Origin: an uncultured archaeon
GTDB lineage: Archaea > Thermoproteota > Bathyarchaeia > Bathyarchaeales > Bathycorpusculaceae
DNA length: 64,000 nt
Direction: 5' to 3'
NCBI GenBank assembly: GCA_963782915.1
Contig: CAWALK010000020.1
Location: 192,001 to 256,000, forward strand
Below, in pieces: positions 3,709 to 30,903 of the stretch. Each line of letters begins with the position of its first letter. Position 1 is the stretch's first letter. The notes under the pieces were generated by a model. The model ran no database searches and was not told where the DNA came from. It was given only the letters and a program-made list of their open reading frames with translations. Both the position numbers and the translations under genes were made by a program.

Positions 3709-4952
3709 CTAATGTGTTTTAAGCGCGTTTTTAATTAACTTTAGCGCCTTCTCTTTCTCGTTCCAATCTACAAAAAGCAGAATACTCGATGTAATTGTTA
3801 ATATGCCGCTGATGTTTATGCCGTTAACGCGCAGGTCCTCGCTGATTTTGCCGATGATGCCCTGAGTTTCCTCTAAGCCGACTCCGCTGGTTTTGAGGAA
3901 GACAAGGTCTTTTTTGACTGCCATGGCTATGGTTTCTTTGTTGTTGATGGTGATGTCGTGGATTTGGTTGAAGAGTTTGCTGATATTCTCGGTTTGTGGG
4001 ACGTAGACGATGATGGAGTTGGTATTCATGGACATGCCTATGAGGCAGGTGTTTTCTTTGACTTTTTGAACGATTTCAGTAATGACTTGTGGATTCTTTG
4101 ACATGCCTTCGCCAATGACAGTGATTTCTGCGACTGGGCCTTCGTTGGCGATTTCGGCATCGAGTTCGGTTGCTAAGCCATCGGTTATGATAGTGCCGTT
4201 TTTGCTTAGGTCGTCGAGTTTGTTGCTCACGACTTTAACGTCTATGTCTTTAGGTTTGTACTTAAGCGCTTTATGTGGATGAATTTAGCGCCTGAATCTG
4301 CCAAACCGACCAATGTGTTGACGTTGATTGTTGGGAGCAGTTTTGGTTGAGCGATGATTTTGGGGTCGCTGGACATGATGCCCTCGGCATCGGTGACCAA
4401 GACGATTTGGTCGGCGTTTATGCCTTGGCCCATGAGGAAGGCTGTGGTGTCGCTTCCGCCCCTGCCAAGGGTGGTGATTTTGCCGTCTTTGGTTTTGCCG
4501 ATGAAGCCTGCGATGACTGGGATGGTGCCTGCTTCAACCAGTGGGAGGATGTTTTCTTTGATGTTTTTCTCGCATTCCTTAACCAGTGGATTTGCGTTCT
4601 GGAAGTTCTCATCCGTAACTATAGGCCATTTGGCATCCATTGGGTCAAAGTAGCATGCGTCAACGCCATTGTTTCGAAGGGCGGCGGCGAAGAGGCGTAT
4701 GCTTGTTCGTTCCCCCATCGAGAGGATGTCGTCTAATTCATGTTTTGCAAGTTTCCCATTCGAAGTGTTTTTTGCTGTGGCTAAAAGTTGGTCTGTGGTT
4801 TTACCCATAGCTGACACTACAACGGCGAGTTTAGTGCCTTTTTTGGATTCGTTAACGACTGCCATGACTGCTTTTAACATGCGTTCGTGATCAGCTAGGC
4901 TGGAACCGCCGAATTTAACCACAATTTTACGTTCAGAGAGTTGTCTTGTCAT
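3709..4952 (-). CDS. lysC: Aspartate kinase with C-terminal ACT domains (frameshift near 4270 joins ORFs 4242..4964 and 3709..4230)
   Basis: VVKFGGSS, VVVSAMG, TTLGRGGSDTTA, TDAEGIMSSDP; ACT-like C-terminus. Confidence 0.9.
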
Positions 4953-4974
4953 TTTATGTTGCACCCATTTCTTT

Positions 4975-5012
4975 GCCCAGAACCGTTCTCAAAAAATTTG
5001 TCAGTTCTGGGC
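4975..5012 (-). promoter_or_regulatory. Hairpin with internal U6 tract between the leader peptide and lysC (candidate attenuator)
   Basis: mRNA sense GCCCAGAAC-TGACAAATTTTTTGAGAACG-GTTCTGGGC; perfect 9-bp stem starts immediately after the leader stop codon. Confidence 0.7.
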
Positions 5013-5102
5013 TTAAGGAAAATAACTGTAATAATAAAAGCCGTAGTCGAAGCTGTGGAATTGTGCTGCGTTGAATTCGCTTTTGGCTTTAGCGTTGAGC
5101 AT
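5013..5102 (-). CDS. Phe/Tyr-rich leader peptide, 29 aa: MLNAKAKSEFNAAQFHSFDYGFYYYSYFP
   Basis: Manual translation, ATG 5102 to TAA 5013; 5 Phe + 5 Tyr, with 9 of the last 15 codons aromatic; directly upstream of the aromatic operon. Confidence 0.75.
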   Translation of the reverse strand: MLNAKAKSEFNAAQFHSFDYGFYYYSYFP

Positions 5103-5137
5103 AGCTTCGAACCTGTCCAATCACTCGCATCTTAGAA

Positions 5138-5151
5138 AATATAAGCGTTTC
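5138..5151 (-). promoter_or_regulatory. Putative BRE/TATA promoter of the leader-lysC-aro transcript
   Basis: Minus strand GAAACG-CTTATATT about 36 nt upstream of the leader ATG. Confidence 0.55.
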
Positions 5152-5251
5152 GGATTAGAGCTTTTTAACTTAAGCGATATCTTCAGGTTCTGCAGGCTCG
5201 ATGCATCTTCAGGCTTAGTCAACGGCGCCTGCGGTTTTTCTCTCTGCAAGC

Positions 5252-6900
5252 TCATTTAACCGCCTCCACAAGCGCCTTAGCTGTTTCTTTACGCACACCT
5301 GCAGAGTTATCGACCGCTTTGGTAGCAATGTCTTTTTCTAGCGTCTGCACCTTGCCCATTGCCGCTTGCTTCTTCTTCTCAAATTCAGCACGCAACTGCT
5401 CCATTTCATACGAGGAATTCTGTTCAGCTAACTGCAACCGTTTCTTTGCATCGAAGAATTTCTGTTCAGTTTCGAAGACTTGCTGCTGAATAGCGACTTT
5501 CTTGAGGGGGTTGCTTGTTTTGGTCATTTTTAATTTGGCGATTTCATTTGCCAAGTCATCGACGTTCTTGTTTAGCAAATCCATGGCGAACTTGCGTTTC
5601 TCTTCAAGCATTTTGGTTTGCGCTTCGAATTGTGATTCGATGTCGCCTGATTTGCCCGAATCCGTGGAGGATGTACCGACTGCCATTGCCAACCGTTTCT
5701 TAACAGAGTTTAATCTCTGGGTTAATTCGCTGACTTTCTGGTCCTGTGCCATCTTCTGCATGGGGTGCCGATAGCTGACTTTGACTGCTTGCGCCTCTGA
5801 CAGTTCTTTTTCGATGTTTGCCATGCTTCGCATGAAGGTTTCGATGGCGCTTGTGCCTTTCTCGACTAATTGTTTTGTTTGGGCAGCATGTTCCTCATCT
5901 ATTTTATTTAGCAAATAGCGGTTTTCTACCAGGGTTCTGTATGAGACTGCGATGTCTGCTTCGTTGGCTATTCTGTTGTCGAGTTCATCTTGGATTTGCC
6001 CAAAGATTTGGTTATATTGTGCGCTAAAGGTTTCGTCCGCGCCGATGGCTGTGTTGGATTCAAATGATAGGATGACTTGGCGGAGGTTTACCATCCAGTC
6101 GTCAAAGTATTTGCTCACTGGTTCCTGCTCGAAGACTTCGTCGCCTAACATGTCGAGGTAAGTTAAGGCTTCGGATGTGACTGATTCTATTTTGGCGTTT
6201 CTTTCCGCCAATAGCTCTATGGTTGGGTCTATCTGCGGTGGTTCCTCGACTTTGGGTGGCTCTTCTATGATTGGCTCTGGCTCTATTGGGGCTGGTTCTG
6301 GCTCAGGTATACTGATAGGTGGCTCAGCTGCGACTAGCGGGGATCGGGAGCGGTTCTGGCTCTATCACTGGCAACATGGGCTCTATTGCTGGAGGCATTG
6401 GAGCTGGAATCATTACGTGGGCTGTCTCGATAATTGGGGCTGTGTGCTTTGCGGAGTCTCTGGGCTGCAATCTCCAGCGTTAAAGCTTCAAACTTGGGCA
6501 CCAACTCATCAATAACTGCCATCATCAAATCGCGGTATTTGGCTTCGCTTAAATCAAGCAGTTCACGGCGCCCATCCACAAAAGTCAAAGCTAAATGCCC
6601 CGTGGGATGTATGAATGCTTTTTCGACTAATCCTAAATCGATGGGAATTATGGATGTGGAGACGGCAATGGAGGAAGTCCATGGCTCCATGTTGGATTTT
6701 AGGGATTTTAGAAAATGGGTGACGACAGAATTTTCTTGGTTGGTTAATTTGCTGATTTCTTGGATGTCTTCAGCGACGGTTTGGAATGTGCTGGCGATTT
6801 CTTCTATGCTAATCTGTTTCTTGCCAGGGTTGTTTAGGTGCTGCGCTGGGGTATGTGCTTGGTATTCTACGAATATGGTGTCTGCTGCATCTTGAGTCAT
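5252..6900 (-). CDS. Hypothetical protein: N-terminal domain, Pro/Glu-rich linker, internally duplicated coiled-coil region (probably one frameshifted gene)
   Basis: ORFs 6334..6900 and 5252..6211 are bridged by a PEPEPAPIEPEPIIEEPP linker in frame with the downstream ORF. Confidence 0.6.
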
Positions 6901-30768: not shown

Positions 30769-30903
30769 GCCGGGGTAGCCTAGCCTGGCTAGGGCGCCAG
30801 ACTCATAATCTGGAGAACAAGTAGGGCCATACGCCCCTGTCCAGAAGTCGCGGGCTCGAAGCTATAATACAGCATTATGGCGAGAATCCCGCCCCCGGCA
30901 CCA
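30769..30903 (+). tRNA. tRNA with CAT anticodon (probably elongator Met), introns at 45/46 (30816..30846) and 59/60 (30861..30886); CCA encoded
   Basis: Acceptor GCCGGGG/CCCCGGC; anticodon arm CCAGA-CTCATAA-TCTGG; after intron removal variable loop AGGTC and T arm GCGGG-CTCGAAT-CCCGC; BHB-type motifs at both introns. Confidence 0.93.

Follow-up and report, generated by a model that had tools for sequence, protein, structure and literature searches.

A candidate Phe/Tyr-sensing leader peptide ahead of the lysC-aro operon in Bathyarchaeia

Could an archaeon adjust the expression of an aromatic amino acid operon to the supply of phenylalanine and tyrosine through the ribosome that translates a short leader peptide? 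The question is raised by the DNA ahead of a lysC-aro operon in an uncultured archaeon of the family Bathycorpusculaceae (class Bathyarchaeia; assembly GCA_963782915.1, 3.28 Mb in 25 contigs). We analyzed a stretch of 64,000 nucleotides, hereafter the window, which corresponds to positions 192001–256000 of contig 20 (CAWALK010000020.1). On its minus strand, a 29-codon open reading frame (ORF) rich in Phe and Tyr codons lies between a promoter and lysC, and its stop codon abuts an RNA hairpin. The first-pass annotation of this DNA had proposed that the frame and the hairpin form an attenuator. We compared the leader with those of related genomes, searched for it in other families and classes, and weighed the mechanisms by which it might act.

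Leader anatomy and conservation within the genus

The leader was read on the minus strand of window positions 4700–5500. Every element listed in the first-pass annotation, namely the promoter, the 29-codon ORF, both helices, the run of six T residues and lysC, was found in its place, and the 9-bp stem described there extended to 11 bp. The transcript carrying the leader, lysC and the aro genes is preceded by a B recognition element (BRE)/TATA promoter, CCGAAACGCTTATATTTT (5153–5136), within which the TATA-like box CTTATATT occupies 5145–5138, 42 nt ahead of the leader ORF. This ORF, MLNAKAKSEFNAAQFHSFDYGFYYYSYFP (5102–5013), comprises 29 codons, starting with the ATG at 5102, and a TAA stop codon at 5015–5013. 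The encoded peptide contains five Phe, five Tyr and no Trp residues. Nine of its last 15 residues are Phe or Tyr, and the corresponding codons, FHSFDYGFYYYSYFP (5060–5016), are referred to as the control codons.

Two helices were recognized in the leader. The first, P1, pairs UCGAAGC (TCGAAGC(T) in the DNA; 5110–5104), directly upstream of the leader ATG, with GCUUCGA (5053–5047), which is also read as the codons Ser-Phe-Asp just ahead of the aromatic run; in the window sequence the pairing joins TCGAAGCT (5110–5103) and AGCTTCGA (5054–5047). The second, P2, has its 5' arm GCCCAGAACUG at 5012–5002, the first base of the arm being the base after the stop codon, and its 3' arm CGGUUCUGGGC at 4985–4975. 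Its core stem is formed by GCCCAGAAC (5012–5004) with GTTCTGGGC (4983–4975), and the 11-bp stem by GCCCAGAACTG (5012–5002) with CGGTTCTGGGC (4985–4975), one of these pairs being G.U. The 16-nt loop of P2 holds an A-run and then six T residues (T6, or U6 in the RNA; 4996–4991), placed 16 nt past the leader stop codon, which are a candidate oligo-U termination or pause signal. A Shine-Dalgarno (SD)-like sequence of lysC, GGGUG (GGGTG in the DNA; 4966–4962), was found 8 nt past P2 and 9 nt ahead of the lysC ATG at 4952, which is itself 22 nt beyond the P2 stem. The SD of lysC therefore lies outside P2 and is not sequestered in the hairpin, unlike in translation attenuation of the cat/erm type. 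No Rfam leader family matched at the gathering score in the window, and none at E <= 10 in 4850–5250.

A lysC orthologue was present in all 36 same-genus genomes searched. Of 43 loci gathered in all, 38 distinct leaders were retained after removal of three duplicates, one locus at a contig end (L006) and one from another family (L042). All 38 share a common design: promoter, P1 5' arm, ATG, about 15 variable codons, P1 3' arm (S-F-D/E), aromatic run, stop codon, P2, SD and lysC. The upstream ORF (uORF) is intact and in frame in every one of them, with 24–29 codons. Two leaders carry an extra upstream in-frame ATG, and a separate parse found 24 of 24 leaders intact at 27–29 codons or more. Alignment gaps within the leader ORF, judged by eye, are multiples of three. 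Each leader has 6–10 aromatic residues among its last 13; summed over the genus, Tyr, Phe and Trp account for 298 of 494 residues there (60%), whereas the variable N-terminal part has 41 in about 540 (7.6%). Changes within the aromatic run stay among Phe, Tyr, Trp and His. The promoter core GAAACGCTTATAT is invariant or nearly so in the 38 sequences, and the distance from the TATA box to the uORF ATG is 39–47 nt in 36 of them, a spacing that implies a putative 5' untranslated region of about 10–20 nt. In 37 of 38 leaders the distance from the stop codon to the P2 5' arm is 0 or -1 nt, and the SD is retained as GGGTG or GGGGG in most. The leader of the window differs by one base, which changes one codon from Gln to His, from that of L043, a relative 96% identical in lysC.

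RNAalifold recovered both P1 and P2 from the genus alignment without guidance. In the structure composed of these two helices, 95.7% of the cells pair, versus 21–45% when the partners are slid by one to three columns. For P1, pairing holds in 99.2% of the cells, and the changes comprise a single compensatory pair (CG/UA) as well as G.U changes. One-sided changes in the core pairs produced G.U on the sense strand in 15 cells and broken pairs in two, and those in the nine core pairs of P2 all gave G.U on this strand. Read on the opposite strand, or as DNA, such positions would be mismatched. The length of the P2 loop ranges from 12 to 21 nt across the genus. The restriction of the G.U changes to the sense strand and the variable loop length indicate that P2 is an RNA hairpin on the mRNA rather than a protein-binding DNA palindrome; a reading of P2 as a DNA operator was rejected on these grounds. 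An intact frame, an aromatic composition and a hairpin that starts where a ribosome must stop are together the signature of a device that measures the progress of a ribosome. The view that a translated Phe/Tyr-rich leader with a stop-adjacent hairpin controls the lysC-aro operon has thus gained comparative support, with the uORF and both stems conserved in 38 of 38 genus leaders, and is, on this sequence evidence, probably correct.

Recurrence in other families and restriction to aro-type lysC

A class-wide draw of 301 genomes contained 99 with an aro-type lysC (E <= 1e-62). The set of loci outside the genus comprised 85 loci, made up of the upstream DNA of 79 loci and six more from the order. 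A leader was assigned to class I when a uORF ending 30–100 nt ahead of lysC had at least six aromatic residues in a 12-residue window. Such uORFs were found at 45 of the 85 loci, in 13 families of Bathyarchaeia. As a control, 42 of 1424 upstream regions of long ORFs in the host genome (2.9%) pass the same uORF criterion. The remaining loci consisted of 30 with a different leader, termed class II (families f26 and f35), eight that were unclear, several of them with weaker aromatic uORFs, and two with too little upstream sequence. Across families the aromatic composition is retained, not the order or spacing of the residues.

The class I uORFs are also followed by hairpins, whose first base lies between -3 and +5 nt relative to the last base of the stop codon. 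Their sequences are unrelated between families; examples are GGGGAAGGGGAGGG.../...CCCUUUCUCCUCC, AAGCUUCGAAACC.../...GGUUUCGAAGCUU, GCCGCGACCG..., AGCCAAGAC... and GGGCUGAAACGG.... In most other-family loci the 3' end of the hairpin lies 9–28 nt before the lysC start. When the 50 nt from the stop codon were folded, class I leaders gave a mean minimum free energy (MFE) of -18.7 kcal/mol and a z-score of -3.68, with 38 of 44 below -2. The aromatic control frames of the host genome gave a mean MFE of -6.6 and a z-score of -0.49, with 7 of 42 below -2. The two sets differ at p ~1e-11 (Mann-Whitney), a value that overstates the difference, the loci being related.

Leaders of this kind were also observed beyond the class. 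Among the loci from a phylum-wide draw of 401 genomes, 19 from other classes were judged by eye; 14 have aromatic uORFs and five have none. The uORFs end, up to the stop codon, in ...MFGYFYFYYFGP, VFGFFYGFYFYFYFGP, ...SFSYFFYYSF and MAYFFFSY, and another carries ...GYSYYRYSE... in its end. Six Candidatus Terraquivivens species share an aromatic uORF, and a short one was seen by eye in a more distant metagenome-assembled genome of the Nitrososphaerales. The conserved aromatic uORF and stem that the first-pass annotation expected in relatives were therefore found throughout the genus, in the 13 other families and in other classes.

The leader is restricted to the aro-type lysC. A second lysC paralogue (13 loci, 40–46% identical) follows immediately on another coding gene and lacks a leader, and the genus leader profile matches the host genome only once. 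Two whole-genome scans were performed, of which the first sought small ORFs of biased residue content ahead of long ORFs and the second a uORF with a stop-adjacent hairpin followed by a gene. Each returned about 100 noisy candidates, among which the aro leader alone stood out.

Several variants of the leader were observed in these sets. The class II leaders (L151–L207), also upstream of aro-type lysC, contain uORFs of the forms MG[DG]xLFGDGVY..., ...FGGHIYGD[YR]YW... or MGGHLYWHKPAPETLIQV followed by the stop codon. In f35/g80, almost no variation is seen in the opening 24 nt of the uORF or in the flanks CUCUGGUG...CACCAGAAUCAGAC, synonymous sites included. The class II leader might work as a sensor based on an arrest peptide or as a riboswitch-like RNA in which an ORF is embedded. 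In L208–L212, from families f58 and f62 of another class, the leader ends in ...YFGP before the stop codon. By eye, its GGUCCC, read as Gly-Pro codons, pairs with GGGGACC across the stop codon, and GGGGACC(AG) can alternatively pair with (CU)GGUCCUC just 5' of the SD, which amounts to a classical 1:2 / 2:3 alternative. In family f7 and its relatives (L110, L111, L146–L150 and L044), the segment immediately ahead of the leader start codon, CUGGGUC or CUGGGCC, has the sequence of the hairpin 3' arm, again by eye; by pairing with the 5' arm, this segment may close off the entire uORF, giving a locked state of an untranslated leader. The arm GCCCAG/CUGGGC (columns 151–159/183–191 of alignment A1; L129–L150) is nearly unchanged across two families whose LysC proteins are 60–70% identical. 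This exceeds the needs of pairing, and the arm may have a sequence-specific partner, either a protein or rRNA. Records titled Methanocella sp. (L034/L250) and Candidatus Micrarchaeota (L051) also contain an aro-type lysC resembling that of Bathyarchaeia (87% and 50% identity), preceded by a leader of the type described here; their contigs have probably been mis-binned or mislabelled.

Proposed mechanism and its rivals

The operon runs in the order lysC-aroA'-aroB'-aroD-aroE-aroK-aroA-aroC-CM-aminotransferase-tyrA, where CM is chorismate mutase. It makes chorismate and leads it on towards Tyr and Phe. Its ending in chorismate mutase, an aminotransferase and prephenate dehydrogenase makes a leader rich in Phe and Tyr and poor in Trp cognate to the pathway. 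We consider it likely that the leader peptide senses Phe and Tyr, with P2 folded in the ON state and P2 prevented in the OFF state. How the fold would be read out is a separate matter, on which the termination signals of the host genome bear.

In the host genome, a run of at least five T residues occurs within 80 nt after 33% of 1431 long-ORF stop codons, versus 7% inside genes, and T6 after 19% versus 1.5%. The runs peak 0–30 nt past the stop codon, with no raised hairpin propensity there. Oligo-T is thus a terminator signal of this genome, and a hairpin-free one. Within the genus, the P2 loop holds at least five consecutive T residues in 30 of 38 leaders, and the longest T-run after P2 is 1–2 nt in all 38. 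An orthologue of the termination factor aCPSF1/FttA is encoded in the host genome (TIGR03675, 898.8 bits against a cut-off of 580.2; contig C12:291568–293451). The available extracts of published work agree with such a system: termination at T-runs is likewise reported for other archaea, and U-tracts are bound by aCPSF1 through its KH domains (PMC8716108). In the extract describing the FttA pre-termination complex, the RNA goes from the exit channel of the polymerase directly to FttA, and FttA is proposed to police the coupling of transcription and translation (PMC11616081). We assume that RNA handed to FttA must be single-stranded.

We infer that the 29-codon leader is translated by a ribosome coupled to transcription, and the following sequence of events would then take place. 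When Phe or Tyr is scarce, the ribosome would stall at the first scarce codon of the aromatic run; the candidate stall sites are F, Y, F, Y, Y and Y at codons -12 to -5 from the stop codon. The 3' edge of a ribosome lies about 12–13 nt beyond its A site. The edge of a ribosome stalled in this run would fall short of P2, and P2 could fold. When both amino acids are plentiful, the ribosome would reach the stop codon and cover the whole 5' arm of P2 while the polymerase makes the loop and the 3' arm, so that P2 would not form. Because the operon is biosynthetic, the P2-folded form should be the ON state. Without P2, the U-rich loop and the 3' arm would trail the polymerase as single-stranded RNA, on which oligo-U termination could take place with the aid of aCPSF1/FttA. 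Once P2 has formed, the same RNA would be locked in a hairpin, either hidden from the factor or blocking its 5'-3' exonuclease; the polymerase would then reach lysC, where the SD would recruit a new ribosome. P1 would link the 5' end and start region to the codons before the control run, and may time initiation or protect the 5' end.

Premature termination at or just past U6, assisted by aCPSF1/FttA, is proposed tentatively as the OFF route in the genus, and we hold it to be somewhat more doubtful than probable. The whole explanation, a ribosome-mediated attenuator that responds to how much charged tRNA-Phe and tRNA-Tyr is available and acts through this termination step, appears almost evenly balanced, leaning slightly to the doubtful side. 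This model is close to that of the first-pass annotation, in which stalling lets the stem form and a ribosome at the stop codon exposes the U-tract. The decision has been moved from intrinsic release to a factor-dependent step because the 3' arm is not yet made when the U-tract emerges. For the proposed termination at the U-tract, the evidence points both ways: T-runs serve as terminator signals, most genus loops contain one and the factor is encoded, while the order of synthesis and the leaders devoid of a T-run speak against it.

A number of observations weigh against the attenuator proposed here. Because the 3' arm of P2 is transcribed later than the U-tract, P2 comes too late to prevent intrinsic release within the tract and could act only on a slower, factor-dependent step. 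The logic of archaeal polarity would predict more, not less, termination at a stalled ribosome. Of the 38 genus leaders, three lack the loop T-run and five more have one of only 3–4 nt. No T-run of four or more occurs in 15 of 46 class I leaders of other families, and in some families T5 follows the hairpin; this patchiness means that a termination read-out in this form cannot be general. Mutually exclusive helices were not found: masking of the 5' arm in five genus members revealed no consistent partner for the 3' arm, and P1 and P2, the only two helices predicted by RNAalifold, are mutually compatible. The 202-nt leader taken alone folds no better than its shuffles (z -0.73; 43 of 200 shuffles as good), so the case must rest on comparison with relatives. 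Covariation within the genus is thin, with three pairs showing double changes, a number reached by 67 of 500 shuffles, and 9 of 18 pairs that never vary. This follows from arms that are almost invariant within the genus, and the structural case consequently leans on the recurrence across families, which consists of per-locus folds and not of one alignment. The first-pass annotation had suggested that cognate leaders be sought at other amino acid operons. No Trp, His or Phe leader was seen in the host genome upstream of trpE, whose start is blurred by a probable frameshift, of hisG, or of the start of the cluster containing prephenate dehydratase (PDT), and the leader device is not a general habit of this organism. 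No sequencing run contained half of the sampled sequence words, the best-matching RNA runs reaching 0.06, and three raw metatranscriptome runs yielded 0 reads, which speaks neither for nor against expression. An RNA-run contig of a relative (365 nt, ~94% alike, depth ~5) spans 4618–4977, starting inside the P2 3' arm and entering lysC; an assembled contig carries no information on where RNAs end.

The position of the leader ribosome might instead set the initiation of lysC translation, alone or together with termination. In this case a folded P2 would leave the SD free, and when P2 is prevented, the freed 3' arm and loop or, after release of the ribosome, the U/C-rich control codons would block the purine-rich SD. 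The most constant relation across families, a hairpin followed by 2–12 nt and then the SD, is in line with such an output, as are the 15 of 46 leaders with no T-run of four or more at which to terminate. By eye, several families (L112, L114, L115, L143, L144 and L184) have SD-like 5' arms and CCUCC-like 3' arms beside the true SD. For 43 other-family leaders, the predicted accessibility of the SD was 0.64 when P2 was allowed (ribosome stalled) and 0.37 when the 5' arm was masked (ribosome at the stop codon), with 35 loci in this direction versus 4; these figures are thermodynamic predictions only. Shuffling of the freed region, however, masks the SD equally (0.40 versus 0.37 for the native sequence, not significant), so the effect is not sequence-specific. 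The genus of the window shows no difference between the states (0.56 versus 0.51; 11 loci versus 7, of 24), its 3' arm shares the high G content of the SD, and the hairpin does not include the SD. We therefore regard a translational output as a serious rival, though rather unlikely. Two specific forms of it were tried and rejected. In one, the control codons would pair with the SD once P2 clamps them, as a lower stem; the accessibility of the SD was 0.38 with native and 0.36 with shuffled codons. In the other, a 3:4-type pairing, the freed 3' arm would mask the SD; a shuffled arm does the same and the genus shows no effect, and the idea is kept only within this rival.

The sign of P2 could also be reversed. 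P2 would then be a negative element, acting like a terminator hairpin, serving as a processing site or barring ribosomes. Stalling at the final aromatic codons (Y-F-P before the stop codon) would let the ribosome melt the base of P2 and switch the operon on, and in plenty the ribosome would leave fast and P2 would fold. Aromatic codons do reach to 1–3 codons before the stop codon in nearly all leaders, and in L110, L111, L148, L168, L171, L173 and L184 T5 comes directly after the hairpin, an arrangement that resembles intrinsic terminators of bacteria. Stalling is, however, expected at the first scarce codon, 5–12 codons before the stop codon, from where the edge of the ribosome misses P2. Given in addition the lack of a T-run after P2 in all 38 genus leaders and the terminators of the host genome, which have no hairpin propensity, this inverse logic is quite improbable. 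An arrest peptide of the TnaC type, in which the nascent peptide and free Phe or Tyr in the exit tunnel would stall the ribosome at the stop codon, hold the P2 5' arm and keep the operon OFF, would account for the stop codon abutting P2 in 37 of 38 leaders. It would also account for the C-terminal motif SF[DE]Y.FYY, well kept in the genus, and the f26 and f35 uORFs do have conserved peptide-like motifs (MG[DG]xLFGDGVY, MGGHLYWH...). The SFD part of the genus motif is, however, explained by the P1 3' arm, and the conservation of aromatic composition alone across families fits the counting of codons better than a shaped peptide, which makes such arrest very improbable. Finally, no ribosome might be involved, with P2 acting as a DNA operator for a dimeric repressor, the uORF encoding a small functional protein, or a U-rich protein-binding RNA site containing an accidental frame. 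The near-invariance of the P2 arms GCCCAG/CUGGGC in f1 and f7, beyond what pairing needs, would suit a binding site, and DNA-binding proteins are known to control archaeal aro operons, as described for Tar of T. kodakarensis in the extract of PMC6737238. A spacing of the arms that varies from 12 to 21 nt, one-sided substitutions that give G.U only on the sense strand, and the unrelated hairpins found by other families' stop codons in the equivalent position are difficult to reconcile with this view. The frame, start and stop codon are moreover kept in 38 of 38 leaders with a variable N-terminus, and it is composition and not sequence that is kept, so that we find an explanation devoid of ribosome sensing scarcely credible.

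The ribosome-mediated attenuator was then compared with known systems. Bacterial leader-peptide attenuators include pheA/pheL, trpL, hisL, thrL and leuL of E. coli. Like these, the archaeal leader has a short ORF between the promoter and the first biosynthetic gene that ends in dense codons for the products of the pathway, a stop codon positioned so that a terminating ribosome would cover the next RNA segment, and two conserved leader helices. Unlike them, it belongs to an archaeal host and has a promoter of the BRE/TATA type; the search for mutually exclusive helices revealed no 1:2 / 2:3 / 3:4 set, and the genus has no terminator made of a GC hairpin and a U-run. The U-run instead lies inside the loop of the sole downstream hairpin, termination in the host genome is oligo-T based and hairpin-free, and there is no Rfam leader match. 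Because the tests for alternative helices and for a hairpin-plus-U terminator failed, we do not file the leader as a bacterial attenuator; it is an archaeal variant of the attenuation principle and not a member of that family.

The tna operon of E. coli is catabolic, and its TnaC peptide senses free Trp; the stalled ribosome hides the rut site from Rho and switches the operon on. In the favored read-out of the archaeal leader, a ribosome at the leader stop codon would similarly decide the access of a termination factor to the RNA, with aCPSF1/FttA in the place of Rho. The archaeal operon differs in being biosynthetic, in that the hairpin rather than the ribosome would hide the RNA, and in the conservation of codon composition. 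In cat/cmlA and ermC, the SD lies inside a hairpin that is opened by a drug-stalled leader ribosome. The archaeal leader resembles them in having an ORF directly before a hairpin near the SD of the regulated gene and in a fold that would be set by the position of the leader ribosome; it differs in that the SD lies 8 nt outside P2 and in that the predicted masking is not sequence-specific. As in archaeal oligo-U/aCPSF1 (FttA) terminators described in the extracts of PMC8716108 and PMC11616081, T6 is on the coding strand 16 nt past a stop codon, the typical terminator place of this genome, and the factor is encoded. Unlike ordinary terminators of this type, T6 stands between a promoter and its own operon and is embraced by a conserved hairpin. 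No description of a conditional use of the archaeal oligo-U signal was found in the literature searched. TrpY is an archaeal DNA-binding regulator of aromatic amino acid genes. Tar (TK0271) of T. kodakarensis is likewise described as a DNA-binding regulator of such genes (PMC6737238, in extract). Both act at promoters, unlike the conserved elements of the present leader, which are transcribed, strand-specific and tied to a reading frame.

The regulated operon and biological meaning

The genes of the operon within the window, all on the minus strand, were assigned by Pfam. The first gene, lysC (aspartate kinase), is represented by an N-terminal part (4952–4242; AA_kinase, 4.5e-46), its frame being broken in the assembly, and an ACT-domain part (4230–3709; ACT_9, 2.3e-08). 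It is followed by aroA' (2-amino-3,7-dideoxy-D-threo-hept-6-ulosonate (ADH) synthase-type, DeoC/LacD aldolase; 3698–2955), a fragment of aroB' (dehydroquinate synthase II, DHQS II; 2428–2051), aroD (1891–1379), aroE (1199–504) and a GHMP-type shikimate kinase (331–2). Past the left edge of the window, EPSP synthase, chorismate synthase, chorismate mutase, an aminotransferase and prephenate dehydrogenase are encoded on the same strand. Many genes of the assembly are split into two frames (in the window at 3709–4964, 2051–2428, 1379–1891 and 504–1199). LysC is split into 240 and 173 aa versus a single frame of 411–432 aa in relatives, aroB' is a 125-aa fragment, and aroD, aroE, trpE (C23:6081–7506), the aminotransferase and prephenate dehydrogenase (L295, 2944–4895) are also split. 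These look like indel errors of the assembly and not the decay of one pathway. Elsewhere in the window, Rfam detected a tRNA of 132 nt at 30769–30900 on the plus strand (44.7 bits), which presumably carries an intron; ARAGORN found no tRNA in the window.

Taken together, the observation made in the first-pass annotation is confirmed and its interpretation is right in kind, while the mechanism of the read-out is less settled. Ribosome-mediated attenuation is a textbook bacterial mechanism that depends on a ribosome closely trailing RNA polymerase, and such ribosome-based sensing of supply has, in the literature searched, so far been described only in bacteria. Leader-peptide attenuation in archaea was not found in the open-access literature and bioRxiv, and an older report in a subscription journal is possible. 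The available extracts of a 2021 review of archaeal coupling (PMC8116511) and of a 2026 review of termination (PMC13675443) make no mention of attenuation, the former none of leader peptides either. Quality control of coupling in archaea is still presented as a hypothesis in the extract of the FttA structure paper (PMC11616081). It is possible, though we would stop somewhat short of calling it probable, that Archaea possess leader-peptide attenuation, that it guards the lysC-aro operon widely across Thermoproteota, in many Bathyarchaeia families, Candidatus Terraquivivens and further classes, with lineage-specific RNA designs, and that P2 of the present genus is an anti-terminator which, when the leader ribosome allows it to fold, denies aCPSF1/FttA its single-stranded, U-rich substrate.

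A conserved leader with cognate codons in dozens of archaeal species provides a concrete test object for regulatory coupling of transcription and translation, with clear mutational targets in the start codon, the Phe/Tyr codons, P2 and T6. The small leader ORF is of a kind missed by gene callers, and its description should be of use to annotators. The findings suggest that attenuation logic could be built on a hairpin-independent, factor-assisted terminator, and that the aromatic pathway of an abundant uncultured lineage of sediment and soil is under cis-acting feedback control. If the proposed mechanism is true, the leader would be the first natural archaeal device that reads out transcription-translation coupling, and it would be either ancient or repeatedly invented.

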